The position numbers and the translations under genes are program-made. A stretch of DNA of 64,000 nt, taken from Clostridia bacterium. GTDB taxonomy: Bacteria > Bacillota > Clostridia > RGIG7378. Within the stretch, counting starts at the first letter, position 1; each line of letters begins with the position of its first letter. The DNA is taken from the NCBI GenBank assembly GCA_017559445.1, contig JAFYSJ010000034.1, positions 270 through 64,269 of the forward strand. The letters are read 5' to 3'. Shown one piece after another: positions 1 through 59,356 of the stretch. The notes beneath the pieces were generated by a model that saw only the letters and a list, made by a program, of their open reading frames with translations, ran no database searches and was not told where the DNA came from.

Positions 1-136
1 CTGTTGCCTCAGGTGTTGGAGTTGCAATATCTCCTGTGTTCTCGCCTGATCCAAGCATAACAAACAACGCAATACCGATGCCTATTAGGAGCAAGGCAAC
101 GATTGCAATTATTATGATTAATTTCTTGTTTTTCAT
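1..136 (-). CDS. 5' fragment (first ~45 codons; gene continues beyond window start) of another paralog of the Cys/His-module + LRR surface protein family
   Basis: nt 1-150 are ~95% identical to 5441-5590 (N-terminus of the 925-aa protein); revcomp reads MKNKKLIIIIAIVALLLIGIGIALFVMLGSGENTGDIATPTPEA from an ATG at ~136. Confidence 0.5.
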   Translation of the reverse strand, partial: MKNKKLIIIIAIVALLLIGIGIALFVMLGSGENTGDIATPTPEAT

Positions 137-156
137 TTTGTTTCTCATTCCTAAAT

Positions 157-2697
157 TTAATATCTAATGAACTGTATATTTGGATCGCATTCCCTAAAAT
201 ACTCTTCTACAATAGAGTATCTGTGCTCTACCCTTACAAGAGAACTACATCCTCTAAAAGAATCATAATAGAAAATTTCCGCTATAGGTGGTAGTCTTAG
301 TTCTTTTAAGGATACACAATTTTCAAAGCATCTCGTAGGTATATATTTAAGTGAGTTTGACAAGTTAATCTTGCTCAAAGATTTACAATTTGCAAAAGTT
401 CCAGGACCCATTGTTTCAACACCATCTGGAATTGTTATCTCATTCAGAGAAGTACAATCTGCAAATACCTCTTCTCCAACCTGCATAACACTACTTGGAA
501 TGGCCAATGTCTTTAAGGATGTACATCCCTTGAAAACCATATCATTTAGTGAGTCCACAATATTCGACAATGTAACATCTGTAAGTGATGTGCAGTTCAT
601 AAATACTGATGGTCCTATATAACTTACAGTATCAGGTATAACAATCTTGCTTAAATTTGCGCAATTTTTAAAGGCACCTTCTTCTATTCTATATATTCCT
701 GATTCGATCGTTACAGACTCTAATCCTGATGCTGCGAACATGTATCTACCAATTATATTCAGGGTGCTAGGTATAACAATTGTCTTTAATGAAGTGCAAC
801 CTTCAAAGATAAAAGCTCCTAGATTATCTACTCCCTTGCCAATTGTAACGTTTGAAAGAGAAGTACAATTTGCAAATGCGCTATCTCCAAGATAATTTAC
901 TGTATCTGGAATAACAATTTGAGTAAGAGAAGTACATCCACCAAAAGTACCATACTCAATTCTTGTTACCTTAGATGGAATAGTAACACTTTTAATAGAA
1001 GTACATTCGCTAAATGCTCCACTATAAATAACATCTACATTACTTGGAATAGTTATATTAGAAAGGTTATAACACTGTGCAAAGGCACACATACCTATTG
1101 TTCTAAGAGAATTAGGTAGTGAAACAGTAACTAGAGATGTGCATTTTTCAAACATCTCATCTCCTATAACAGTTACGCCTTCTTTAATTGTTACTGTTGT
1201 AAGAGAAGTGCACTCTCTAAATGCCCATTGTCCAATCTCTTCTACTCCTGATCCAATAGTAAGTGTTTTAAGTGAACTACATCCCCAAAATGCACTTTCT
1301 CCTAAAGATTTTACGTTATCTGGAATAACAAGACTCTTAAGTCCCAAACAATTTTCGAAAGCTTTTTCCTCTATCTTAGTTACTGAGCCTGGAATAGTAA
1401 TGCTTTCAATAGCATTGCAACTTGATAAAGCTCCAGCACCGATAGTAGTAACACCATTAGGAATAGACAATTGCTTTAATCTATCGCAGCCATATAAAAC
1501 CCAATCGCTAAGTTCTGTTAATCCCTTAGGCAAAGTGATGCTTTGCAATCCCGAACAATTCATAAAGGCGTTTGCCTCAATCTTTGTAACTGTATCTGAA
1601 ATGACTATACTCTTAATGCCTCCAACACCAGCAAAAGCACTATTTCCAATTACAGTTACCTTATATCCATCAATCTGAGAACCTATGACTATATTTGATT
1701 CTGTACATGTACCTACACCAGTAATTGTGCATGTAATTCCATCTGCATTAACTTTGTAACTAAGGCCAATGGATCCATCTGTATTTGGCTTAGGTGTAGG
1801 TGTTGGAGTAGCTGTTGGAACTGTGGTAGGTATTGGCGTTGGAGTAGCTGTTGGTGCAGGTGTAGGTGTTATGGGATCTACATATGTATCAATGTAGCTA
1901 CTACCACAATCAGTGCAAGTATGTGTTGTATATCCCTGACTATTCATTGTTGGAGGAGTTACAACACTATTGTAGTTATGACCCTTTGATACAACAACTT
2001 TCTGAGCTACAAGTACCTTGTTGCATACAGAACAATGCTTACCTTCTGTTAAGCCAGATTGTGTACATGTAGCTGCTACTGCATCGTCTTTTGCCTCTGT
2101 ATGAGGTTTAGTTGCAATTGATGTTTGTGGAACGAGGATTTCTCCACACTTTTTACATTTGCTACCTTCTGTTAAGCCGGCTGTAGTACATGTTGGTTCC
2201 TTACCTACAAGCTTTTCTACATCTGTATGGGTACAGTTTACGTCGCGAATATATCCGCAAACGTTACATGTTTCATCGTTCTTATCTGTGTATGTATGTG
2301 CCTTAATAGGTACTTCATCCTGAGCAATAAGGATTGTATTGCATACGGAACAGTGCTTACCTTCTGTTAAACCTGTCTTAGAGCATGTAGCTTCTACAGC
2401 TGCATCTACTACCTCTATATGAGGAACAAGGTCAATTTGCTGAGTTTCCTTTTCACCACAAGAGCAAACTCTCTCCTGCTCTCCTCTTTCTACACATGTT
2501 GGTTCCTTTGTAATATTCCAGTCTCCATAAGAGTGGGTATGACCTATAGCAGGAGTTGCCGTTGCATCAGGTGTTGAAGTGGTGGTAGGTATAGATGTAG
2601 GGGTGCTTGTTGCTACATCATTTTTATCTCCTGTGGTACAAGACGCCATAGTCACAATCATGAATAGAATTAACAATATGGATAAAAACTTCTTCAT
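157..2697 (-). CDS. Surface lipoprotein: N-terminal lipobox (MASCTTG), Cys/His-rich ~40-aa tandem modules, Pro/Thr linker, C-terminal BspA-type leucine-rich repeats
   Basis: 846-aa ORF; signal peptide with Cys; repeated ATCxxxGLTEGxHCSVCN modules; PTxTP linker; LRR_5-like repeats (IPxxVxxIGxxAFxxCxxL). Confidence 0.8.
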   Translation of the reverse strand: MKKFLSILLILFMIVTMASCTTGDKNDVATSTPTSIPTTTSTPDATATPAIGHTHSYGDWNITKEPTCVERGEQERVCSCGEKETQQIDLVPHIEVVDAAVEATCSKTGLTEGKHCSVCNTILIAQDEVPIKAHTYTDKNDETCNVCGYIRDVNCTHTDVEKLVGKEPTCTTAGLTEGSKCKKCGEILVPQTSIATKPHTEAKDDAVAATCTQSGLTEGKHCSVCNKVLVAQKVVVSKGHNYNSVVTPPTMNSQGYTTHTCTDCGSSYIDTYVDPITPTPAPTATPTPIPTTVPTATPTPTPKPNTDGSIGLSYKVNADGITCTITGVGTCTESNIVIGSQIDGYKVTVIGNSAFAGVGGIKSIVISDTVTKIEANAFMNCSGLQSITLPKGLTELSDWVLYGCDRLKQLSIPNGVTTIGAGALSSCNAIESITIPGSVTKIEEKAFENCLGLKSLVIPDNVKSLGESAFWGCSSLKTLTIGSGVEEIGQWAFRECTSLTTVTIKEGVTVIGDEMFEKCTSLVTVSLPNSLRTIGMCAFAQCYNLSNITIPSNVDVIYSGAFSECTSIKSVTIPSKVTRIEYGTFGGCTSLTQIVIPDTVNYLGDSAFANCTSLSNVTIGKGVDNLGAFIFEGCTSLKTIVIPSTLNIIGRYMFAASGLESVTIESGIYRIEEGAFKNCANLSKIVIPDTVSYIGPSVFMNCTSLTDVTLSNIVDSLNDMVFKGCTSLKTLAIPSSVMQVGEEVFADCTSLNEITIPDGVETMGPGTFANCKSLSKINLSNSLKYIPTRCFENCVSLKELRLPPIAEIFYYDSFRGCSSLVRVEHRYSIVEEYFRECDPNIQFIRY

Positions 2698-2807
2698 ATG
2701 AAATTAACTCCTTTTAATACATGGACACAATTTTACAACTTTGCCCATATTTTGTATAGGGCAAGGGGTGTCCCTGTTGGAACACCCCTTATAAAACAAG
2801 CATTATC

Positions 2808-5585
2808 TTATTGATACTTTTTAAACACAATATTAGGATGGCAATTATTAAACGCTGTAGAATCACATTTGTAGCCATTATTTGATACACCAACAGACAT
2901 ACTATATGGCATATTTACTAATGCGAGACTTTCACAATTTGCAAAAGCGCTCTGCCCTATGGACTTTACAGTCTTAGGAATGGTTATTGTTTCCAAAGAA
3001 GAACAACCGCTAAAAGCAAACGCATCAATCATTGTAACTCCTTCTGGGATTGATATGCTCACTAATGATGTGCATTTATAGAAAACAGCATGCTTTATTT
3101 CCGTAACCTTTGATGGTATTTCGAAAGATTCAAGGCCTGAATTACTAAATGCATAGGCTTCGATTACTTCAATTGAATCTGGCAACTCTATTGTTTTAAG
3201 AGCACTACATCCACTAAATACAGAATAGGCTATATTCTTTAGACCATCTGGAATATTCACATTCTTCAAAGAAATACAACCTGAGAACATTCCATCTCCC
3301 ATTTTAACTAAATTATTAGGGAATATTACGGATTCCAAACTTTTACAATTAGCAAAGATACCGCTGTATGTAATCTCTGGGATACTGGATGGCCATGTAA
3401 CACTCTTCAACCCTGTACAGTAGTAAAATGCATTATTTTCAATTGTTTTTACACTATTGGGAATAACAACTTCCTTCATGCCTGTACAATAGTAGAAAGC
3501 ATACATTCCAATTGAAGTTACCGTGTTAGAAATAGTAAAACTTTCAATGTCATACTTATACGCAAAAGCATATTGTTTAATTGAAACTACTGTATATCCA
3601 TCAATTTCAACAGGCATAATGATGTTTGTATCAGTGCAATTGCCAATTCCCGTAATTGTGCATGTCTTTCCATCACTATTTACACTATAAGCTAATCCCT
3701 TTGAGGCAAGTGAATCAACGTATGAATCCACATAGCTATGACCACACTTTGAGCAGGTGTGTGTTGTGTAACCCTTAGATGTTACTGTTGGCGATGTTAC
3801 TACGCTGCTATATGAATGATTTAATGGAGTTACAGTCTGCGCTACAAGCACGGTATTACATACAGAACAATGTCTACCTTCTGTAAGACCTGTGCTTGTA
3901 CATGTTGCGGCTACTGCTGAGTCTATTACTTCTGTATGACCCTTAGCTGGAATCACTGTCTGTGCTACAAGTACCGTATTACATACGGAGCAATGTTTAC
4001 CTTCAGTGAGTCCTGTTCCTGTGCATGTAGCTGGTACAGCCACATCCTTCACTTCAGTATGACCTTTAGCTGGGATTACAGTTTGAGCTACAAGTACTGT
4101 ATTACATGTAGAACAATGTTTACCCTCAGTGAGACCTGTGCTTGTGCAGGTTGGTGACACAGCCACATCCTTCACCTCAGTATGGCCTCTAGCTGGAACT
4201 ACAGTCTGTGCTACAAGCACGGTATTACATACAGAACAATGTATACCCTCAGTGAGACCTGTGCTTGTACAGGTTGGTGACACAGCCACATCCTTCACCT
4301 CAGTATGACCTTTAGCTGGAACTACAGTCTGCGCTACAAGCACGGTATTACATACAGAACAATGCTTACCCTCTGTAAGGCCTGTTTCTGTGCATGTTGG
4401 AGCTTTTGCAGCATCTACTACTTCTGTATGTGACTGCACGGGAACAACAATTTGATCAGCAAGTACTTCATTACATGCAGAACAGTGTCTGCCCTCTGTA
4501 AGACCAGTGCTTGTACATGTTGCTTCTACTGCCACGTCTGTTACTTCTGTGTGACCTTTTGCAGGAACTACAGTCTGAGAAACCAAGATCTCGCCACACT
4601 TTTTACACTTGCTACCATCTGTTAATCCTGCTGTAGTACATGTTGCTTCCTTACCTGGAATAACCTCAGTATTTGAATGTGCGCACTCTGCATCTCGTGT
4701 AAATCCACATACGTTACATGTCTCATCGTACTTATCGTCATATGTATGAGCTACTATTGGAACAATTTCTTGAGAAACTAGTACTGTGTTACATACAGAA
4801 CAATGCTTGCCCTCTGTTAATCCAGACTGAGTGCATGTTGCCGCAACAGCAGCATCCTTTACTTCCGTATGACCCTTAGCTGCAACTACCGTCTGTGCCA
4901 CAAGCACCTTGTTACATACGGAGCAATGCTTACCCTCTGTTAATCCAGACTGAGTACATGTAGCAGCAACTGCTGTGTCTTTTACCTCTGTATGTCCCTT
5001 GGCTGCAATTACTGTCTGAGCTACAAGGATTTCGCCACACTTTTTACACTTGCTACCTTCTGTCAAACCAGCTGTAGTGCATGTTGCATCTTTTCCCACA
5101 AGCTTTTCTACATCTGTGTGAGCACAGTTTATATCGCGAACATATCCGCAAACGTTACATGTATCGTCGTTCTTATCTGTATATGTATGTGCTTTAAGGG
5201 GAACTTCATCCTGAGCAATAAGGATTGCATTACATACGGAACAGTGCATACCTTCTGTAAGACCTGTTTTATCACATGTTGCCTCTACTGCAGTATCTAC
5301 TACTTCTGTATGAGGAACCAGATCAAGTTCCTGAGTTTCTTTATCCCCACAGGAACAAACTCTCTCCTGTTCACCCTTTTCTACACATGTGGAGTCCTTT
5401 GTAGTAGTCCAGTCTCCAAATGTGTGAGTATGATCTGGATTAGGAGATGCTGTTGCCTCAGGTGTTGGAGTTGCAATGTCTCCTGTGTTCTCGCCTGATC
5501 CAAGCATTATAAACAATGCAATACCGATGCCTGCTAAGAGCAAGGCAACGACTGCAATTATTATGATTATTTTTTTGTTTTTCAC
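2808..5585 (-). CDS. Paralogous surface protein: signal anchor, ~12 tandem 41-aa Cys/His modules (GHTEVxDxAVxATCTxxGLTEGxHCSVCNxVLVAQ), C-terminal BspA-type LRR
   Basis: 925-aa ORF, GTG start with GGGAGA RBS; N-terminus near-identical to fragment at 1-136; LRR C-terminus similar to 157-2697 product. Confidence 0.8.
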   Translation of the reverse strand: MKNKKIIIIIAVVALLLAGIGIALFIMLGSGENTGDIATPTPEATASPNPDHTHTFGDWTTTKDSTCVEKGEQERVCSCGDKETQELDLVPHTEVVDTAVEATCDKTGLTEGMHCSVCNAILIAQDEVPLKAHTYTDKNDDTCNVCGYVRDINCAHTDVEKLVGKDATCTTAGLTEGSKCKKCGEILVAQTVIAAKGHTEVKDTAVAATCTQSGLTEGKHCSVCNKVLVAQTVVAAKGHTEVKDAAVAATCTQSGLTEGKHCSVCNTVLVSQEIVPIVAHTYDDKYDETCNVCGFTRDAECAHSNTEVIPGKEATCTTAGLTDGSKCKKCGEILVSQTVVPAKGHTEVTDVAVEATCTSTGLTEGRHCSACNEVLADQIVVPVQSHTEVVDAAKAPTCTETGLTEGKHCSVCNTVLVAQTVVPAKGHTEVKDVAVSPTCTSTGLTEGIHCSVCNTVLVAQTVVPARGHTEVKDVAVSPTCTSTGLTEGKHCSTCNTVLVAQTVIPAKGHTEVKDVAVPATCTGTGLTEGKHCSVCNTVLVAQTVIPAKGHTEVIDSAVAATCTSTGLTEGRHCSVCNTVLVAQTVTPLNHSYSSVVTSPTVTSKGYTTHTCSKCGHSYVDSYVDSLASKGLAYSVNSDGKTCTITGIGNCTDTNIIMPVEIDGYTVVSIKQYAFAYKYDIESFTISNTVTSIGMYAFYYCTGMKEVVIPNSVKTIENNAFYYCTGLKSVTWPSSIPEITYSGIFANCKSLESVIFPNNLVKMGDGMFSGCISLKNVNIPDGLKNIAYSVFSGCSALKTIELPDSIEVIEAYAFSNSGLESFEIPSKVTEIKHAVFYKCTSLVSISIPEGVTMIDAFAFSGCSSLETITIPKTVKSIGQSAFANCESLALVNMPYSMSVGVSNNGYKCDSTAFNNCHPNIVFKKYQ

Positions 5586-5686
5586 TTTGTTTCTCCCTTA
5601 TTTTTGCCAAATAATGAACTAATTTTACAACTTTGCATACCTTTTGTATAGAGCAAGGGTGTCCCTTTCGGAACACCCCGGAGTGA

Positions 5687-8146
5687 TTACTTTTGTGTTA
5701 TTTTTATGTACTTATAAGCATTATTAAATGCTGTCTTATCATATGATCCCTTTGCCATCGTTACATTCGCTAGAGAAGTACAATTAGCAAAACAATAGCC
5801 TGAAATATATGATACCGAAGGCAACTCTATACTTGTTAGAGACGTACAATTAAAAAATGTATAAGGTTCAAGCCAAGTTACATTCTTTGACATTGTAACA
5901 CTCTTAAGTGCTATGCATCCACTAAATGCCCCTTCCTCTATCCAATCTACACTGTCTGGGATTACAATGCTGGTAATGGTTTTGCAACTTTCAAAGGCAA
6001 ATACACCAATAGTTGCAACCCTTTTTTCATTGTACGTAGATGGAATAACAATGTCAGTATCAGTACATGTTCCGATACCTATAACCGTATATGTACCATC
6101 ACTCTCAAGCCTAAACTTAAGACCTAGGGGTCCTGTCTCTAACGGCTTAGGCGTGGGCGTCGGAGTCACTGTCGGTTTCGGCGTTGGTGTTGCCGTAGGC
6201 TTCGGCGTCGGTGTTGCCGTTGGCTTCGGCGTCGGTGTTGCCGTTGGCTTCGGCGTCGGTGTCGCCGTTGGCTTCGGCGTTGGTGTTGCCGTTGGCTTCG
6301 GCGTCGGTGTTGCCGTTGGCTTCGGCGTTGGTGTGGCCGTTGGCTTCGGCGTTGGTGTTGCCGTTGGCTTCGGCGTCGGTGTTGCCGTTGGCTTCGGCGT
6401 TGGTGTGGCCGTTGGCTTCGGCGTTGGTGTTGCCGTAGGCTTCGGCGTTGGTGTTGCCGTTGGCTTTGGCGTTGGTGTTGCCGTTGGCACTGGCGTTGGT
6501 GTTGCCGTTGGCTTCGGCGTCGGTGGTGCCGTTGGCACTGGACTTGGTGTCGGAGTCAAAGTCGGACTCGGAGTTGGAGTCGCAGTCACCATTGGTGTGG
6601 GTGTAGCCGTCGGCCTATGTGTTGGTGTAGGACTTGGCGTAGGACGACCAATAACTACAACCGGCTTTGGTGTTGGAGTTGGAGTCGGTTTAGGTGTTGG
6701 TGTCGGTGTGGGACTTGGTGTAGGCACAGGTGTAGCCGTTGGCACTGGGCTTGGTGTCGGAGTCGCAGTAGGTTCCGGTGTTGCTGTTGGCACTAGACTT
6801 GGTGACGGAGTTGCTGTAGGAACCGGAGTTGATGTGGCCGTTGGCTTCGGTGTTGGAGTTGGTGTTGGCATTGCTGCTTCCCACTTTTTCTCCCAGAATG
6901 GACTAAACTCCACATTAAACAAAGTTAAATCTGCCAATTGCTTATCTATAACTGGCACAGTAACAACCAATTTTCCTCTCAAAAGAGGTGATACACTGAG
7001 TTTCAAATTGCCTGCAACCTCAGGACCACTAGAACCCATATATCCCTTAAGTTGTCCTTCCATCTTTGCAGTAACACCTGCTGCAATTTCTGTACCTGTG
7101 CTACCATAAAGCCTAGAAGTCAATTTTGTTACAACTCCTATGCTTGCATTTCCTGAGAAATCCGCCTCTGTTCCCCACTTAAATGGTTCCTTGGGCTTAG
7201 TAAACTGGTTAATTTCTGTTAGGTCTCCCTTGTTATATATAAATCCCACGACTCTTTCCGTGTCCAAGGAAACCGTTGCAGTAAATGTACCTGTAACATT
7301 TGCACTTCCTTCTATTCCAAAGTACAAATCATTTGTAATAACAACTGGAATTACACAGTAAAAATAGATATTAGGTAATCTTTTATTAGCAATTTCCTTT
7401 TCGTACTCACCATTATATATCTCATGCTCATATTCAAGGGACATTTCACCGTCTGTAATCAAGTGAGTTACTAAAGAAAGCTCTACCTTACGCCACCTAA
7501 CCTTGAGAGTAAACTCAAGCCAAATAGTGCAGCCAATATTGCCCTTTAATGTTGTGTTTTTGGCAAGTTTGAAATTGAAATCTCCAGAATATGCAAATTG
7601 AGCATCTCCATTTGCAAGTCTAGAAAATGCAGGTTCTTTTTCCATGCGTAAATTAGAAAGGTCATTGGAATTACTGCAGAGCAAAATAGCCCCTGCCAAA
7701 AAATCATCTCCACCTTCCAAATCGGATTCATCCATCTCAAAGAAAGTTTCCTCTGTAATAAGGAAGTTCTTAGTAATATTTGCCTCTTCGAAAACATCTG
7801 CAAATGTGGCAGGTTCTGTTTCATACACATACATGCCATCGACAACCTTAACGTCCACTACCTTAACCATGAATCCTGAAGGTGCAACATCTGTAATATC
7901 AGACACAACAACATCACCAATCTGAATCTCTGGATCATGATTGTAAACAAGAGTGTTCTCCTCTACTATGACAGGGGTCTTGGCTTCCTCTGTTGTCTCT
8001 GTAACAATATGTACGTTATCGTTTATGACTGCGGTGCCTTCTGCTGGCATAGAATTCCTGTCGTACAAGAAAATTCCTACACCTACGGCAATAGAAACTG
8101 CCAGAACGGCGCTTATGATAATAGCTAATAACCTACCCTTTGACAT
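5687..8146 (-). CDS. Membrane-anchored surface protein: N-terminal TM, unknown ~400-aa domain, long ([10 protein letters not shown])n linker, C-terminal BspA-type LRR
   Basis: 827-aa ORF (track start 8170; internal ATG at 8146 has a GAGGA RBS); near-perfect 30-bp tandem coding repeats; LRR tail. Confidence 0.7.
6165..6530. repeat. ~12 near-perfect tandem copies of a 30-bp unit (cggcgttggtgttgccgttggcttcggcgt) encoding [10 protein letters not shown]; coding VNTR
   Basis: direct reading of the periodicity in the sequence; the antisense ORFs 5913-7109 and 6211-6438 are artefacts of this repeat. Confidence 0.85.
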
Positions 8147-8266
8147 ATGATCCTCTAGTTTTATGTACATTATTCGTCAATTATAGCACAAAATTCATTC
8201 ACCAACACCAAACACTAAACACTGGACCCTACTTTTGCTATAATTCCCTTAAGGGAGGACAAAATC

Positions 8267-10363
8267 ATGAAAACATACACAAACTCTAAACTTTCCAAAA
8301 GAACACTATTACCTTTTCTCGCAATTGCACTTGTTTTGACACTTTGTCTTACAGCTTGCGGAGATAACAATCAGGGAGACCCTTCTCACGAACATTCTTT
8401 TTCTGAGTGGACTGTCACACAGGATCCCACATGCACTACTATCGGAAAAGAAACTAGAGCATGCTCATGCAAGGCCACTGAATCCAGGGATATTCCCACT
8501 CTTGAACACAACATTGTGGTACTTCCCGGCAAGGACCCAACTCCAACAACCGAAGGACTTACTGAAGGTGCTGGATGCTCTGTGTGCGGCTTGGTTACTG
8601 TTGCTCAAGAAATAATTCCTTGCATAACTCCTTGGGACGGAACTGTTGCCGACTCCTTTGCCAAGGGTACTGGCTCTGCTCAAGATCCATACATTATTTC
8701 CAACGGAAGTGAACTTGCCTATTTGTTTACTTTGATTTCTGACTCACAGTACAAAAGCTGTGCGGGACTTTTCTTTAAAATTTCCCAAGATATTCACTTA
8801 GGCGACTTAGAATGGCCCTACGGAATTGGCGACTTTAATTCCCAATTCTCTGGCACATTAGATGGCAATAACCACTATATTTCTAACTTCCAGATTAACT
8901 ACACAGAGAAACTAAGCCACACTATGATCGGCCTCTTCCCTATGCTGTACAATGCATATATCAGCGATCTAGGTTTGAAAGAATTTACCATAACTGCCAG
9001 TGGAAATGCGGGCCTATCCATTGGAGGTTTGTCCGGATATTCAAGTGATTCCACCATCACAAATTGCTATGCCATTGGCTCAATCGATGCAACAGAAACT
9101 ACATATTACAGTGCTGTTGGTTTGTTAATCGGAGACCTTTACCAATGCACAGTTAATAAATGCTATTCCGAAGGAACTGCAAAAGCATACAACAGCAATT
9201 TTTACACAAATGTTGGCGGACTTTTAGGCCACACTAATAAGGGAGAACTTAGGGAAAGCTATTCCTCCGCAACTGTGTATGGCTCCTGTGCAGCTGGTTT
9301 AGTCAGCAGTGTATCAAACACAAATATCTCTGATTGCTATGCCACAGGTGACGTATATGCTTACGGCTATGAACCAAACGGCTATCGCGTTGACCTTTAT
9401 GTCGGTGGCCTTATTGGACATTGTACCTCCCAGGAATCCTTAAAGAACTGTTACGCAACAGGCAACGTGAATTACTCTGGTCCTGCCACATATGCATTTG
9501 TTGGAGGTCTCGTTGGCAATAGCTATACCATCGAAAACTGCTATGCTACAGGCAATGTTACTGCTACGAATTGTAGCGGAACACTGGAAATTGGCGGTTT
9601 AGCAGGCTCCTGCAGTGCCACAACATGCGCTTACGCTACTGGCAATGTTACTGTTACAAATAACTCTTCCTCATATGTATATGCTGGAGGATTCGCTGGA
9701 ACTTTTGCTAGCATTATCGATCAGGCTTTTGCCACAGGCGATGTATACGTAGAAAACACATGTGACACCGCAAACTTTATTATTTTGGATGTTGGCGGAT
9801 TCGCTGGATACTCAAAGAGTGGCGGAACCACAAACTGCTACGCTACTGGCGACGTTACTGTAGTTGGAAACAACTACATAAACGCAGCTGGTTTTATTGG
9901 CAAGTGTGAACTCAGCATGTATGACGGATACAACTCATTCAAAAACACCTCCTGCTATGCCACTGGTAATGTTACTGCAACAGGTATTCAGGGCAATTAT
10001 AGTATCTACATGGAAGTGGGTGCTTTCTCTGGTTACCAGGGAATTATCCCCGACAACTGCCTTGCCACTGGAAACATCACAGTTACAGGTGCAACAGGCG
10101 GTAGCCATATAGGCAATTTTGCTGGCCTTACATACCATTCATTCCAAAGTGATAACAGCGTTTACGATGCAATGAACATTAGTATCGAAACCTTGGACGG
10201 CAGCACATTAACTGCAACAACCAATGCATCCACATGCAAATTAGCGGACATAAACAACAAGACATTCTATACCGACTCTCTTGGTTATGACCCCAACATC
10301 TGGAATCTGGATGACATAGACTTTGAAAATGGTAAAATGCCAACATTGCTTTTTAGTAAGTAA
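8267..10363 (+). CDS. Surface lipoprotein with one N-terminal Cys/His module followed by many GLUG-like repeats (..VGGLxG..NCYATGNVT..)
   Basis: 698-aa ORF; GGGAGG RBS; lipobox LTAC-G; one HxxxxW..C.C..TEGxxCSVC module; >12 repeats of G-L/F-x-G + CYATG. Confidence 0.75.
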   Translation: MKTYTNSKLSKRTLLPFLAIALVLTLCLTACGDNNQGDPSHEHSFSEWTVTQDPTCTTIGKETRACSCKATESRDIPTLEHNIVVLPGKDPTPTTEGLTEGAGCSVCGLVTVAQEIIPCITPWDGTVADSFAKGTGSAQDPYIISNGSELAYLFTLISDSQYKSCAGLFFKISQDIHLGDLEWPYGIGDFNSQFSGTLDGNNHYISNFQINYTEKLSHTMIGLFPMLYNAYISDLGLKEFTITASGNAGLSIGGLSGYSSDSTITNCYAIGSIDATETTYYSAVGLLIGDLYQCTVNKCYSEGTAKAYNSNFYTNVGGLLGHTNKGELRESYSSATVYGSCAAGLVSSVSNTNISDCYATGDVYAYGYEPNGYRVDLYVGGLIGHCTSQESLKNCYATGNVNYSGPATYAFVGGLVGNSYTIENCYATGNVTATNCSGTLEIGGLAGSCSATTCAYATGNVTVTNNSSSYVYAGGFAGTFASIIDQAFATGDVYVENTCDTANFIILDVGGFAGYSKSGGTTNCYATGDVTVVGNNYINAAGFIGKCELSMYDGYNSFKNTSCYATGNVTATGIQGNYSIYMEVGAFSGYQGIIPDNCLATGNITVTGATGGSHIGNFAGLTYHSFQSDNSVYDAMNISIETLDGSTLTATTNASTCKLADINNKTFYTDSLGYDPNIWNLDDIDFENGKMPTLLFSK

Positions 10364-11039: not shown

Positions 11040-11315
11040 TTTCACTAGCGCAGCGGCCTACTAGCAACGCAGTTGCGGTTCACTAGGCGTAGCCGGTTCA
11101 CTAGCAAGCTTTGCTTGCGGCTCACTAGCCGAAGGCGGTTCACTAGGCGTAGCCGGTTCACTAGCAAGCTTTGCTTGCGGCTCACTAGCGCAGCGGCCAC
11201 TAGCAACGCAGTTGCGGTTCACTAGGCGTAGCCGGTTCACTAGCGCAAAATCGCTAAAATCAATCTTAGGAACATTTTTCCTGCGTTAAACACTAACCAC
11301 TAAGCACTAAACACT
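11040..11315. repeat. Modular repeat array, locus 1: ~12 (TTCACTAGC + mini-hairpin) modules (11040-11256) followed by inverted AGTGTT-type repeats (11285-11315)
   Basis: seen directly; hairpin types GCAGCGGC, AACGCAGTTGCGG, GCGTAGCCGG, AAGCTTTGCTTGCGG, CGAAGGCGG; a 60-bp segment is duplicated. Confidence 0.85.
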
Positions 11316-15801: not shown

Positions 15802-18756
15802 TTACTTCTTAAACTTTGAAATCAATGCCATAAGGTCAGCAACGCTCTTTTTCTTAAGAACAAACCAAACAACTGCGAAACCGCCCGCTCCAAGCACAAC
15901 CGCTCCGCCAATGCATCCAGCCACTATGCCTACAACCGCTCCTGCCTCTAAGCTATCATTATCCTCTCCTATAGAAAGGTCTCTACCACAAACATCACAT
16001 TCTTTATCCCCATCAGTATCCTCGTGGCTAGCCTTGTCATATACATGCTCTTCGCAATCTGCACAGTCGTGCCAGTGGTAGTTCTTGTTCTTTCTCCACT
16101 TTGTCTTTGCTGTGTGCTGAACAGGAGTTACATCTATAGTATCATCTGAAGAATTATTGCTGCCAATGTAGTATGCGCAGACACTGCAGTACTCATATTC
16201 AGTATCGTGAGGCACAACGGAACTCTCATCCTTTGCTCCACAACGACAGATATACCAGTGAGTTGTATCGTCGTTTCTAACAACCTCGTATGTGTGCTCT
16301 ACCTCGCGAATAAAACCACAATTATCGCAATCGGCATCGCATTCGTTAGAGTTATCGTATACGTGACCATTTGCGTGAATCTTGCCATTTGCGTCGATAC
16401 AAAGACCAGATGCATCTTCAATAACTATTGTTCCATCCACTGCTTCAGAAACATTACCAAAGGCGTACAAATTTGTGTTAATGGAATCAGTCTTCAAATA
16501 GGAGCAATCCTTAACCTCGCCACGTCCCCAAATGGATTCGCTATAGCCTGCGATTCCACCAACCATGGTATTACCTGATACATTACCAAGGTTAATATTA
16601 CCTTCGAGTCTGATAAATCTCATCCATCCGACAATACCACCTACATACTCAACACCAGTTACGCAACCAGAATTATTTCCAACGATGCTACCACGATTGC
16701 TGTCGTTGTCCGAAAATCCAATCAAACCACCAACGTACTTTTCGCCTGCGATGTCACCATAGTTATTACCAGATGTCCAGCTATCTCCTGCACCTAAGCC
16801 GCAAACACCACCAACATAATCCTTACCTGTTACGTTACCGTAGTTATCACACTTGCTAGGGTTATAAAGCTCACTGCATCCTCCAGCAATACCACCTACG
16901 TAGTTACCTGTGGAGAAAACATTACCGTTGTTCACACATTCTGTAATATCCCAATGTGTGATATATCCAGCGATACCACCTACATAGTTGCCTTTACCAA
17001 AAACATCTCCATTGTTAACGGACTTTTCTACACTGCCAGCTACACTAGATACAATGCCTCCAACATAGTCCACGCCAACAACTGCACCTTCGAAAGTGCA
17101 ACCATAAATGGTGTGTGAGTTAAGTCCAATACAAATACCAGCTGCAGATCCAGCTGTAGATCTAACATATGCATTCTTAATGCTGATGTTCTTTACGTCT
17201 GTACCCAAATTACATATAAATGCCACATTCTCAGCAGAGTCCATGTAAAGTCCATAAATGGTAAATCCATTACCGTCCAAAATACCATTCAATCCAGAAA
17301 TAGCCTTCCACTTATTCAAAGAGGATGTATCTACTGTAATGTTACCCATTGCATCGTATGTAAGGGCAACTTCGTTAAGAATAATGTCATTAGCCAACAT
17401 GTAGTTGTAGTCCACCCACTCACCACTTAAGTTGGACAAAAAAGCAAGCTCAGAAGCGTTGTAAATCATGTAGTAATAAACGCCGTCTACATTAACAAGT
17501 ACTGTTGGCTCCTTAGCAGATCCATCCCAAGGACCTTCCTGAGCAGGAGGTGTTATTCCCTCTTCTCCTGCAACGTTTCCAAACTCAGTCAAATTGGTGT
17601 TAATTGTGTCATTTTTGTCAAAGGAGCAATTTTCCACGGCACCTCTTCCCCAGATGGAATCACTAAAACCAGCAAGTCCACCTACCATGGTTGTACCAAC
17701 AACGTTACCTGAATTGTGGCAATTTGAAAGGGTAATAAATCTCATCCATCCAACAATACCACCTACGTATTCAATACCAGTTACGCTACCAGAGTTGTTT
17801 CCAACGATGCTACCACGATTGCTGTCGTTGTCCGAAAATCCAATCAAACCACCAACGTACTTTTCGCCTGCAATATCACCATAGTTATTACCAGATGTCC
17901 AGCTATCTCCTGCTCCCAAACCGCAAATACCGCCTACGTAATCCTTACCAATTACGCTACCGTAGTTATCACATTTACTGGGGTTATAAAGTTCACTGCA
18001 ACCTCCAGCAATGCCTCCTACGTAGTTACCTGTGGAGAAAACATTACCGTTGTTCACACATTCTGTAATATCCCAATGTGTGATATATCCAGCGATACCA
18101 CCTACATAGTTGCCTTTACCAAAAACATCTCCATTGTTAACGGACTTTTCCACACTGCCAGCTACACTAGATACAATGCCTCCAACATAGTCCACGCCAA
18201 CAACTGCACCTTCGAAAGTGCAACCATAAACAGTATGTGAGTTAAGTCCAATACAAATACCAGCTGCAGATCCTGCTGTAGATCTAACATATGCATTCTT
18301 AATGCTGATGTTTCTTACATCTGTGCCCAAATTACAGATAAATGAAGCATTTTCTGCAGAGTCCATGTAAAGACCGCAGATGTTAAAACCGTTGCCGTCC
18401 AAAATACCCTTTAATCCAGAAATAGCCTTCCACTTATTCAAGGAAGAAGTATCTACTGTAATGTTACCCATTGCATCATATGTAAGGGCAACTTCGTTCA
18501 GCACAATATCATTAACCAAAATATAGTTATACTCGAGCCACTCTCCGGATGCCTGCGCCAAGTAAGCCAGCTCCTCAGCTGTAGAAATCTCATAATAGTA
18601 AACGCCCTCCACAGATCTAATTACTGTAGGCTGAGTAACTGTCTTGCCATCCCATACCTTAACTTCGTCTGCATATGCATTCTGAGCGTTAAAGCCAACT
18701 GTAACTGCAAGCAAAAGTACAGCAATTACCATCAAAAAGGTTTTAATTTGTTTCAT
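15802..18756 (-). CDS. Large cell-surface protein: signal peptide, two near-identical ~370-aa halves each with GLUG-like repeats, C-terminal Cys/His module, C-terminal TM anchor
   Basis: 984 aa; AGGAGA RBS; signal MKQIKTFLMVIAVLLLAVTVGFNAQNAYA; internal duplication; HWYICRCG...CSVC...CADCEEH...CDVCG; C-terminal hydrophobic helix + KKK. Confidence 0.85.
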   Translation of the reverse strand: MKQIKTFLMVIAVLLLAVTVGFNAQNAYADEVKVWDGKTVTQPTVIRSVEGVYYYEISTAEELAYLAQASGEWLEYNYILVNDIVLNEVALTYDAMGNITVDTSSLNKWKAISGLKGILDGNGFNICGLYMDSAENASFICNLGTDVRNISIKNAYVRSTAGSAAGICIGLNSHTVYGCTFEGAVVGVDYVGGIVSSVAGSVEKSVNNGDVFGKGNYVGGIAGYITHWDITECVNNGNVFSTGNYVGGIAGGCSELYNPSKCDNYGSVIGKDYVGGICGLGAGDSWTSGNNYGDIAGEKYVGGLIGFSDNDSNRGSIVGNNSGSVTGIEYVGGIVGWMRFITLSNCHNSGNVVGTTMVGGLAGFSDSIWGRGAVENCSFDKNDTINTNLTEFGNVAGEEGITPPAQEGPWDGSAKEPTVLVNVDGVYYYMIYNASELAFLSNLSGEWVDYNYMLANDIILNEVALTYDAMGNITVDTSSLNKWKAISGLNGILDGNGFTIYGLYMDSAENVAFICNLGTDVKNISIKNAYVRSTAGSAAGICIGLNSHTIYGCTFEGAVVGVDYVGGIVSSVAGSVEKSVNNGDVFGKGNYVGGIAGYITHWDITECVNNGNVFSTGNYVGGIAGGCSELYNPSKCDNYGNVTGKDYVGGVCGLGAGDSWTSGNNYGDIAGEKYVGGLIGFSDNDSNRGSIVGNNSGCVTGVEYVGGIVGWMRFIRLEGNINLGNVSGNTMVGGIAGYSESIWGRGEVKDCSYLKTDSINTNLYAFGNVSEAVDGTIVIEDASGLCIDANGKIHANGHVYDNSNECDADCDNCGFIREVEHTYEVVRNDDTTHWYICRCGAKDESSVVPHDTEYEYCSVCAYYIGSNNSSDDTIDVTPVQHTAKTKWRKNKNYHWHDCADCEEHVYDKASHEDTDGDKECDVCGRDLSIGEDNDSLEAGAVVGIVAGCIGGAVVLGAGGFAVVWFVLKKKSVADLMALISKFKK
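16430..18700. repeat. Intragenic tandem duplication: two ~1.1 kb segments (about 16430-17560 and 17600-18700) nearly identical at nucleotide level
   Basis: identical peptide stretches in both halves; the spurious antisense ORFs 16565-16762 and 17594-17884 share the same translated sequence. Confidence 0.8.
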
Positions 18757-21662: not shown

Positions 21663-21905
21663 GTGTTTGGTGTTTAATCATTACTTTGGAACGACCCAAA
21701 GTAACCAAAGGTCGCCCGCTACTTCCGAAGCGCGGGAGGCACGGTTCACTAGCACCAACGGTGCGACCTACTAGCGTAGCGGTTCACTAGCCGAAGGCGG
21801 TTCACTAGCCGAAGGCGGCTACTAGCGAACGAAGTGAGCGGTCACTAGCAACGCTAGTTGCGGTTCACTAACTCCGTGGCTACTAACTCCGTGGTTCACT
21901 AACAA
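21661..21905. repeat. Modular repeat element, locus 2: (GGTGTTT)2 head + 70-nt conserved core (21675-21745) + ~9 (TTCACTAGC + mini-hairpin) modules
   Basis: core identical to 32850-32915; array overlaps the last codons of rqcH. Confidence 0.85.
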
Positions 21906-30740: not shown

Positions 30741-30815
30741 GGCAGGGGAGACAGGACTCGAACCTGCAGCCGACGGTTTTGGAGACCGCTACTCTACCAA
30801 TTGCGCTACTCCCCT
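30740..30815 (-). tRNA. tRNA-Trp (anticodon CCA)
   Basis: revcomp folds as AGGGGAG..GGTCTCCAAAACC..GGTTCGAGTCC..CTCCCCTGCCA; anticodon loop CTCCAAA. Confidence 0.9.
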
Positions 30816-31629: not shown

Positions 31630-31986
31630 AAAACCGAGTAAGTCAATAAGCCGGGTTCTGTATTTGACAGTCATCTATCTAGGCCTGAGATCTCTAACAG
31701 GCTCAATCCACCTCCCCGGAACGGACGGGCAGCCCTATTGTTCCTCCACGGTGTTTCTCCGAATGGGGTTTACACGGTTCGGTATGTTACCATATCGCCA
31801 GTGAGCTCTTACCTCACTTTTCCACCCTTACCAAAGCATAGCCTTGGCGGTATTTTTCTGTTGCACTTTCCTTAGAGTCGCCTCCACCGGTATTTCGCCG
31901 GCACCCTTGCCCTACGGAGCCCGGACTTTCCTCGTTGGGGACCTTTCGATCGTCCACCGCGACTGTCCGGCTTACTCGGTTCTATT
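31630..31986 (-). ncRNA. rnpB: RNase P RNA (bacterial rnpB)
   Basis: minus strand contains CGAGGAAAGTCCGGGCTC, GGTAAGGGTGGAAAAGTGAGGTAAGAGCTCACTGG, ACAGAACCCGGCTTA; P1 pairing GAACCGAGTAAG/CTTACTCGGTT defines the ends. Confidence 0.9.
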
Positions 31987-32800: not shown

Positions 32801-33378
32801 TAGTGTTTGGTGTTGAGTGTTTAGTGTTGAGTGTTTAGTGTTTAATAATTACTTTGGAACGACCCAAAGTAACCAAAGGTCGCCCGCTACTTCCGAAGCG
32901 CGGGAGGCACGGTTCACAAAGCTGTGCTTTGCAATGTTTAGTGAATGTCCCTGTGTTCCAGAAATCATTTCACGAGAGCGCAGCGATTCACTAGCGTAGC
33001 GGCCACTAGCGCAGCGGCTCACTAGCACCAACGGTGCGACTACTAGCGAATGCAATGAGCGGTCACTAACGAGCTTTGCTCGTGGTTCACTAGCAACGCA
33101 GTTGCGGCCTACTAGCCGAAGACGGTTCACTAGCGAGGGAAACGAGCGTCTACTAGCGTAGCGGCCACTAGCCGAAGGCGGTTCACTAGCGCAGCGGTCA
33201 CTAGCCGAAGGCGGTCACTAGCAAGCTCCGCTTGCGGCTCACTAGGCGCAGCCGGTTCACTAGCACCAACGGTGCGACTACTAGCAACGCAGTTGCGGTC
33301 ACTAGCCGAAGGCGGTCACTAGCAAGCTCTGCTTGCGGCTCTCTAGCACCAACGGTGCGACTACTAGCGCAGCGGATA
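32801..33378. repeat. Modular repeat element, locus 4 (largest): (TAGTGTTK)6 head, 70-nt core (32850-32915), unique ~75-nt insert, then ~25 (TTCACTAGC + mini-hairpin) modules
   Basis: seen directly; about 30 CTAG tetramers in 450 bp; hairpin repertoire shared with loci 1, 2 and 5 (GCAGCGGC, CCGAAGGCGG, AACGCAGTTGCGG, ACCAACGGTGCGA, AAGCTCYGCTTGCGG). Confidence 0.9.
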
Positions 33379-33379
33379 A

Positions 33380-33422
33380 CAAAACAAAAAAGCATCCACA
33401 TTTCTGCAGATGCTTTTTGTTT
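33380..33422 (-). terminator. Bidirectional terminator hairpin (AGCATC-cacatttctgca-GATGCT) with A/T runs, just 3' of the CAU tRNA
   Basis: hairpin with flanking homopolymer runs. Confidence 0.55.
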
Positions 33423-59163: not shown

Positions 59164-59356
59164 GCTAGCAGGAAATGTTTATACAACCGAAGGAGTAACA
59201 CTCTCAGGTATCCAACTGGATGAGGACCGCTGGCCGATGGAACTTTGGAGAATCCCTTTTTAGGGTGCCGAAGGTGCAAAGCAATCTGCTAATCTCTCAG
59301 GCAAAAGGACAAAGGATTTTATTCACCCATTAAATTGGGTTTACTTTTGTTTTTTA
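59164..59356 (+). promoter_or_regulatory. Glycine riboswitch, tandem aptamers (59164-59312), plus terminator-type expression platform (ACCCA-ttaaat-TGGGT + U-run, 59325-59356)
   Basis: both aptamers show ..CCGAAGG(A/T)G.AA...CTCTCAGG....AGGAC; second aptamer has GGAGAA P1; located before a Na+/Ala-Gly symporter. Confidence 0.75.

Follow-up and report, generated by a model that had tools for sequence, protein, structure and literature searches.

Programmed, cassette-based antigenic variation operates in systems such as Borrelia vlsE, Neisseria pilE/pilS, Treponema tprK and Anaplasma msp2. In Helicobacter pylori, the babA, babB and babC genes, which are full-length and separately located paralogs with shared 5′ and 3′ blocks, are reported to recombine with one another. 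Here we describe an array of surface-protein genes at the start of a 64,000-nucleotide stretch of DNA (the window) from a Clostridia bacterium (GenBank assembly GCA_017559445.1, contig JAFYSJ010000034.1, positions 270 to 64,269 of the forward strand), together with the repeats and intergenic cassettes that connect its genes. The locus is an ordinary island of paralogous cell-surface protein genes of an uncultured ruminant-gut Clostridia bacterium; it is of a familiar kind and reveals no new mechanism. The reading that we favour, and consider probable, is that of an island of leucine-rich repeat (LRR) surface proteins whose genes meet at terminator-plus-promoter junctions, and whose diversity arises by general homologous recombination between the paralogs.

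The gene order of the island is G, A, B, C, D, E, followed by a tRNA gene and then F, with G divergent from A, the genes A to E in one orientation and F convergent with them. Recombination among full-length paralogous adhesin genes such as those of the H. pylori bab family appears to be the nearest analogy. Common to both are a near-identical end block, non-reciprocal copying, chimeras that change the variable part expressed, and a reliance (presumed for the array) on general recombination, the events being seen as differences between isolates (here, between assemblies). The array differs in belonging to a Gram-positive-type member of the Clostridia, in being tandem and on one strand, so that deletion or duplication is also possible, and in having no dinucleotide phase-variation tract. 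With vlsE, pilE/pilS, tprK and msp2 it shares segmental, apparently one-way copying, in this case of B into D, but it has neither one expression site that draws on silent, promoterless and partial cassettes nor specialised cis elements at the tract ends. The encoded proteins resemble the BspA-type LRR proteins (Tannerella forsythia BspA, Treponema denticola LrrA, streptococcal HupY/LrrG) in the long LRR_5 domains of A, B, C and E, in putative N-terminal export or anchor signals, recognised here by inspection, and in forming multigene families. They differ in their stalks, which are built from 41-aa cysteine-rich (Cys) modules and proline/threonine (Pro/Thr) linkers that have no Pfam family above the cut-off and no PDB sequence match.

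Three haplotypes of this repeat-rich locus were compared, all from short-read metagenome assemblies. The first is the window strain itself, which is represented also by L001 (ERZ28653814 scaffold_25), 100% identical to the window except for two N-gaps; the second is L002 (ERZ28019177 k141_2299486), a second strain of ~99.8% identity; and the third, strain 3, is ~96-98% identical and is given by L068 and L069, which come from two different assembly pipelines and agree at 7,010 of 7,011 nt (99.99%). The 811-aa member of gene A's cluster led to strain 3. When proteins B, C and G, GroEL and the tRNA-editing-domain protein were looked up by exact sequence, only two long contigs were returned, together with fragments ending in the repeat of gene A, the matches originating from ruminant gastrointestinal metagenomes. 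The GroEL of the window strain is the sole member of its 90% cluster, a scan of metagenome contigs with protein C for further strains gave nothing above 42% identity, and homologue searches with D and C gave distant LRR proteins only. A comparison among strains for copy number and mosaicism had been proposed in an earlier note made from the window's letters alone, and it proved informative: the three strain versions differ by a conversion-like tract, by the presence or absence of 5.45 kb and by the repeat number of gene A, and an invariant locus was not observed.

The features on which this comparison turns are the following, with coordinates referring to the window.

1-136, minus strand: 5′ end of gene D, from the open reading frame (ORF) listing; the full gene, of 664 aa, runs past the window start (L001 12562-14556)
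2808-5585, minus strand: gene B, 925 aa, with a GTG start (ORF listing, Pfam)
4874-5595, minus strand: B copy of a 722-nt direct repeat shared by B and D, 95-98.5% identical to the D copy and starting 10 nt before the start codon
4975-5408, minus strand: donor stretch in B of a conversion-like tract, at minimum 434 nt and at maximum 4874-5477, 604 nt

The D copy of the repeat begins in window positions 1-146. The region around the start codon, the membrane anchor and the first of the Cys-rich modules are all encoded by the 722-nt block. The homology breaks off abruptly at repeat position 722; past this point B has additional Cys modules and D has a C-like module. Within the window, the start of B and the D fragment had been put at ~95% nucleotide identity; the measured value is lower, at ~92% (11 mismatches in 136 nt). 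Between L001 and L002 there are 22 single-nucleotide polymorphisms (SNPs) over 14,772 aligned nt, all of them confined to a 434-nt stretch of the repeat in D, and elsewhere the two contigs differ by one SNP in groEL and by register shifts in the repeat of A. Over repeat positions 118-721 the D gene of the window strain is identical to B, whereas the D gene of L002 differs from B at 21 of the tract sites; B itself is unchanged between the strains except at repeat position 336. With gene C as outgroup, nine of the 22 sites match the B allele and nine match the L002 D allele. Because C is split in this manner, the D gene of L002 is best taken as a genuinely diverged paralog and that of the window strain as the copy overwritten by B. 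The same count rules out that the L002 tract was copied from C. The tract changes six amino acids of D, and its substitutions are of all types rather than adenine-specific.

Apparent segmental copying of B into D has been seen once, over 434-604 nt, between the metagenome assemblies of two strains and with B unchanged, and the step we propose is a non-reciprocal transfer that would carry 5′ coding sequence of B into D. While the differences between assemblies are directly observed, we infer from them that RecA-type recombination was their origin, as well as its direction and rate. Repeat position 336 hints at a second exchange, as one derived base is present in both B and D of L002, and B and D of the window strain and strain 3 share the other base. 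A mosaic origin of D from B and C was also considered and is ruled out, since the identity of D to C stays at ~82-90% along the whole length and shows no step change.

Strain 3 reveals a larger difference. Its gene order is G, A, cassette, X, hairpin and E, where X is a gene of 666 aa composed of the A/B cassette, the GTG start of B, the shared repeat and the 3′ part of D. Strain 3 is without exactly the 5,449 bp that lie between the repeats, comprising the 3′ part of B, the B/C cassette, gene C and one repeat copy, and it retains the A/B cassette upstream of the fused gene. Deletion or duplication of this 5,449-bp unit between the 722-nt B/D repeats would change the LRR part that stands behind the A/B-junction promoter. 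None of the breakpoints falls at a cassette. The earlier note had expected near-identical blocks in the same orientation to recombine, and this holds for the B/D repeat and not for the cassettes; the sequence comparison thus suggests that the active recombination substrate is the B/D 5′ coding repeat rather than the ~60-nt cassettes.

A third kind of variation affects gene A and a repeat within it.

5687-8170, minus strand: gene A (ORF listing, Pfam)
6177-6536, minus strand: 24-nt repeat encoding TPTPKPTA, 15 copies, in gene A (repeat analysis)

The variants of A, of 819, 811 and 795 aa, differ by whole TPTPKPTA units only, and slippage or unequal exchange in the 24-nt repeat may account for them. 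Elsewhere in the same gene, strain 3 carries 11 substitutions in ~50 nt (L068 ~3430-3480, corresponding to window ~6040-6090, the first LRR of A), giving seven amino-acid changes against a local background of ~1%. No donor for this cluster was found in the array; diversifying selection may have produced it, or micro-conversion from an unseen paralog.

The junctions between the genes are listed here with the promoter region of A.

137-156, minus strand: C-D spacer of 20 nt, with a ribosome-binding site only, no hairpin and no promoter motif
2698-2807, minus strand: B/C junction cassette, with a hairpin, a promoter-like site and an AAAGGAG ribosome-binding site
5586-5686, minus strand: A/B junction cassette, with a hairpin, a promoter-like site and an AAGGGAG ribosome-binding site
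8180-8222, minus strand: promoter region of gene A, with an extended −10 TGCTATAAT and heptamers

The A/B and B/C intergenic regions share a core of ~60 nt at ~90% identity, and the gene ends that flank them are unrelated. The core consists of a 10-bp G/C hairpin followed by a promoter-like TATACA-17-TAAAAT site, and it is found at these two junctions only. The −35-like TATACA and the −10-like TAAAAT occupy 2753-2758 and 2730-2735, respectively, in the B/C cassette, and 5645-5650 and 5622-5627 in the A/B cassette, in each case followed by the ribosome-binding site. Searching the window for GCAAAGTTGTAAAATT returns exactly two occurrences and places the second GTTGTAAAATT at 5621-5631, not 5612-5622. 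A cassette had been thought to precede each gene, but it precedes only B and C; D lies 20 nt from C, and upstream of A is a canonical extended −10, TGCTATAAT at 8180-8188, that is unrelated to the cassette and has GTGTTTR heptamers upstream of it at 8204-8222. Nor is the cassette site itself a canonical extended −10 (TGnTATAAT), an extended −10 having been claimed: TAAAAT matches five of the six positions of the −10 consensus, but the TG abuts the hexamer (TTG-TAAAAT) with no spacer base, and the promoter scan returned ‘TG_before_second: no’.

In strain 3 the stem, −35 and −10 of the cassette are intact though five other cassette positions have changed. As judged from sequence, a sigma-70-type TATACA-17-TAAAAT site would start the next transcript at each cassette. 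Promoter-like sites are present at each of A, B, C and E, and D is probably co-transcribed with C, in one transcript, because the spacer between them has neither hairpin nor promoter motif. A second hairpin, TTGCCC...GGGCAA, was considered inside the cassette and rejected, being neither conserved nor compensated in the other copy. In Rfam, no relevant match was obtained for the window at gathering thresholds, nor for the cassettes or the D-E spacer when permissive E-values were used.

The hairpin pattern GGGGTGTTCC-N4-GGGACACCC has exactly two occurrences in the 64 kb, at 2765-2788 and at 5656-5679, and had no match in 100 shuffles. The earlier note was right that a conserved G/C hairpin without a U-tract stands at these two places, but its assignment to the promoter cassette is only part of the picture, as the hairpin belongs equally to the 3′ end of the upstream gene. 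The A/B copy, GGGGUGUUCC-gaaa-GGGACACCC, begins 7 nt past the stop codon of A, and the B/C copy, GGGGUGUUCC-aaca-GGGACACCCC, begins 19 nt past that of B and has the tail UUGCCCUAUAC. A third copy lies outside the window, at L001 14569-14591, 12 nt past the stop codon of D; it is followed by TTTGCTTTTAT, a normal U-tract, and the promoter block of the cassette is not behind it. Predicted fold energies for the sense strand are −19.6 (B/C), −17.6 (A/B) and −14.7 (third copy) kcal/mol, compared with −15.2 and −12.0 kcal/mol for the antisense of the two window copies, the third copy having no antisense hairpin. The 10-bp stem of the sense strand contains a conserved U-G wobble that becomes a C-A mismatch in the antisense, and the third copy differs by AC->UG, both pairs being kept as G-U wobbles in the sense RNA only.

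In our best reading the hairpin is a terminator or 3′-end hairpin of the upstream gene, because it lies close to a stop codon, pairs better in the sense strand and carries a U-tract on the third copy. Intrinsic terminators with weak U-tracts, assisted by NusA and NusG, are known from Bacillus subtilis. The array resembles intrinsic terminators in having a stable G/C-rich hairpin just past each stop, with 10-bp stems 7-19 nt after the stop codons, and in one copy a proper U-tract directly after the stem. It differs in that the window copies are tailed by UUGCUCUA and CUUGCCCU, and these may be 3′-end protecting hairpins or leaky terminators. The A/B and B/C copies have lost the U-tract and are probably leaky, or would mainly stabilise the transcript, and partial read-through is likely since the window hairpins are without it. 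The two cassettes may accordingly be pictured as duplicated terminator-plus-promoter junctions, in which the hairpin would close or protect the upstream transcript. A dispersed REP/BIME-like element (repetitive extragenic palindrome or bacterial interspersed mosaic element) was rejected, there being two copies in 64 kb and a third just outside, and a scan of one genome per species across 185,579 species returned 32 single hairpin matches in unrelated taxa and contexts.

Several observations weigh against the favoured reading and have to be set beside it. All of the comparative evidence comes from short-read metagenome assemblies, in which the collapse or bubble-merging of repeats could mimic both the conversion tract and the 5.45-kb ‘deletion’, and only three haplotypes were compared (n=3). 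The 100-N gap of L001 in gene B spans repeat positions 173-666, which is inside the 722-nt repeat. The repeat in X is equidistant from its presumed parents, with 17 sites matching B, 17 matching D and 10 private, all interleaved; this is not the pattern of a single recent crossover or a simple single-crossover deletion, and deletion and duplication are indistinguishable because of it. At the junctions, the TATACA-17-TAAAAT site is a 9/12 match to consensus that is not enriched (21 found against 27 expected from shuffles), and the two window tails of the hairpin both fail a hairpin-plus-T-run scan, so that termination there is no more than putative.

The first of these points can be extended into an alternative, namely that the locus is invariant and the strain differences are artefacts of short-read assembly, whether collapsed or bubble-merged B/D repeats, a scaffold gap closed with the wrong paralog, or a repeat-mediated misjoin that skips the 3′ part of B and C. 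Besides the gap within B, the numerous contigs of this species that stop inside the repeat of gene A and the short length of L068 and L069, only ~7 kb, speak for it. Yet L002 is one k141 contig that runs unbroken through both B and D, and the longest exact match between B and D there is ~100 nt, which is less than k. Random merging of bubbles would be expected to leave a mix of alleles, whereas the window D has the B allele at all 21-22 sites. A truly identical repeat also produces a gap at one copy, and the gap in L001 fits, as we read it, with such a repeat, while showing as well that assemblers struggle here. The join in strain 3 was obtained by two pipelines with one mismatch in 7,011 nt and bears its 10 private substitutions in the repeat. 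We regard an artefact as unlikely. Less probable still, in our judgement, is a dedicated, high-frequency system of antigenic or phase variation (the earlier note had raised a potential for antigenic variation), in which the cassettes and the B/D 5′ block would be cis elements moving LRR ‘heads’ behind an expression promoter; of the alternatives weighed here we give it the least credence. It would account for the way in which strain 3 joins the LRR part of D to the A/B-junction promoter, a B-type start and the 5′ block common to B and D, for a B-to-D tract between strains that are otherwise 99.99% identical, and for the derived SNP common to both L002 paralogs. As a programmed system it finds no support in the array itself, where there are no silent cassettes, promoterless or truncated, every member being a complete ORF that has its own start codon and a putative signal sequence for export, and where the promoters have no flanking inverted repeats. 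The gene lists hold no recombinase, invertase or reverse-transcriptase gene within ~10 kb on either side, the substitutions are not adenine-specific, the breakpoints are never at a cassette, and there are only about three events among three strains. Inverton, shufflon and diversity-generating retroelement were each considered and rejected on the inverted repeats, the gene lists and the substitution types.

The remaining alternative concerns the hairpin, which could instead be a DNA operator, a G/C palindrome bound by a transcription factor that co-regulates B and C, its centre lying ~45-50 bp upstream of the −10. A 10-bp inverted repeat at a fixed distance to TATACA/TAAAAT in both cassettes, and absent elsewhere in the 64 kb, is what such a site would look like. 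However, the third copy is not followed by the promoter block of the cassettes, as the closest TTGTAAAAT is ~135 nt away, and its two changes keep pairing only as G-U wobbles in RNA; the conserved U-G wobble favours folding of the sense strand in all copies, and each copy stands directly past a stop codon. An operator is on these grounds very improbable. We return, then, to an island of LRR surface proteins that probably diversifies by general homologous recombination between its paralogs.

So understood, the locus is a base-resolved example of an LRR surface-protein family diversifying between strains of an uncultured ruminant-gut bacterium, by copying from paralog to paralog, by gain or loss of a two-gene unit bounded by repeats and by change in linker length. 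It is of use in interpreting strain-level variation and assembly breaks in gut metagenomes, and loci of this kind need long reads. A more ambitious proposal is that the 722-nt block and the A/B-junction promoter form a portable ‘expression front end’ that switches the displayed LRR head by frequent recombination within a population. We think this improbable; if true, the array would be a contingency locus through which a commensal gut Firmicute varies its surface, with no dedicated recombinase needed.

The remaining genes and modules of the island within the window are these.

157-2697, minus strand: gene C, 846 aa (ORF listing, Pfam)
3816-4579, minus strand: tandem array of 123-nt (41-aa) Cys modules in B, with copies 77-83% alike and the spacing H-x12-C-x11-C-x2-C
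4787-5027, minus strand: second, two-copy Cys-module block in B (repeat analysis)
8267-10363, plus strand: gene G, a GLUG-repeat lipoprotein divergent from A (ORF listing, Pfam)

The three complete minus-strand ORFs and the start of a fourth at 136 were given exactly in the earlier note, and long ORFs on the opposite strand (e.g. 5913-7109) are mirror images of the repeats, not genes. Its description of the products as related surface proteins is borne out by an LRR_5 domain in all three complete genes, with the limitation that only the C-terminal LRR of A, some 110-150 residues at its end, is related to B and C. The LRR_5 (PF13306, BspA-type) scores are 82 bits for A, 331 for B, 454 for C and 643 for E against a Pfam cut-off of 27.7, with Pfam E-values of 4e-23, 3.5e-100 and 2.7e-138 for A, B and C. 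The array proteins are not equivalogs of HupY/LrrG or Gli349, because they score far below the cut-offs of these NCBIfam models (157 vs 1250 bits). The LRR family is very large in Clostridia, with >3,400 and >5,300 proteins passing the E-value cutoffs in homologue searches, and the sources of the homologues include Clostridia, Acutalibacteraceae and Ruminococcus flavefaciens. Inspection suggests lipobox-like motifs (..MASC, ..LTAC) in C, E and G, and a hydrophobic anchor at the N-terminus of A, B and D; Pfam LPAM_1 falls below its cut-off on E. The proteins would thus appear as BspA-type LRR ‘heads’ on stalks of Cys modules and Pro/Thr linkers, with predicted N-terminal lipid or membrane anchors.

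Individual members vary on this plan. B consists of a membrane anchor, ~13 Cys-rich modules and an LRR_5 domain, its modules comprising eleven units of 41-42 aa with the spacing listed above as well as shorter variants, and their number is equal in both strains that carry B. C combines a lipobox-like signal and four Cys-rich modules with a Pro/Thr linker and a long LRR_5 domain of the BspA type, and its protein is identical in two assemblies, while D follows the order of N-terminal membrane anchor, Cys-rich modules and LRR_5. The N-terminus of G carries Cys-rich modules like those of B, at 40% identity. On this basis G appears to be part of the surface-protein island, which extends further than the earlier note states. 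Cys/His modules are located at 3816-5310 (B), 1970-2420 (C) and 8380-8620 (G), and Pfam columns show the 41-aa modules in numerous other proteins of Clostridia, some of which contain cohesin. The modules may form a zinc-binding extracellular repeat. An AlphaFold2 model of the 41-aa modules from a five-row alignment had a predicted local distance difference test score (pLDDT) of 34 and is unusable.

Gene A encodes a membrane anchor and a predicted all-beta domain of ~390 aa, followed by ~240 aa of Pro/Thr linker and a short LRR_5 domain. Its true start is likely the ATG at 8146, which gives 819 aa, has a GAGGA ribosome-binding site and is used in the public annotation; the ATG at 8170 is just 10 nt from the TGCTATAAT −10. 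The N-terminal domain, residues 38-430 (6881-8059, minus strand), has no Pfam match and represents an uncharacterised family, for which an exhaustive search gave 321 representative clusters at E<=1e-3, of which 66 remain at E<=1e-30. From a 60-row alignment, AlphaFold2 predicts it confidently as all-beta, with strands of ~20 residues (pLDDT 85, predicted template modelling score 0.82), and a Foldseek search of the model against the PDB gave no match with E<0.01.

Past the window start are the rest of D, the third hairpin, E (an 818-aa LRR lipoprotein), a terminator, the tRNA gene and convergent F, of 931 aa. Gene F (L001 17648-20443, minus strand) has a different Cys-rich repeat, ATGHKWDNGTVTKEPxCExxGxKTFKCxxC..., a C-terminal membrane anchor and no Pfam family above the cut-off. 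The neighbouring genes include groES/EL, pcrA, hpf, the tRNA-editing-domain gene and an ABC transporter. Beside pcrA is a 984-aa ORF (15802-18756, minus strand) with no Pfam family above the cut-off and only weak matches to the GLUG motif. Ordinary RNA genes in the window comprise a class A RNase P (31631-31978, minus strand), a glycine riboswitch (59235-59322, plus strand) and five tRNAs, at 30743, 33426, 39251, 51239 and 51319.

Elsewhere in the window, intergenic arrays of short units occur at 11041-11245, 21745-21880 and 32987-33380. In each unit TTCACTAG or CTACTAG is followed by C, by a small G/C hairpin with a stem sequence that varies per unit, and by GG; TTCACTAG itself occurs 17 times in the window against 2.7 expected. 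The arrays have no Rfam match and may represent a structured RNA or a family of repeats specific to this genome. Several assemblies break or gap at the array copy downstream of groEL. Two of the arrays are preceded by an identical block of ~65-75 nt (21681-21744 and 32849-32912), the 40-nt core of which matches exactly twice, and by runs of the GTGTTTR heptamer at 21663-21674 and 32803-32842, both on the plus strand. The same heptamers occur on the minus strand, at 8204-8222 upstream of the gene A promoter and at 11289-11314 near groEL, making 10 matches against 1 expected.

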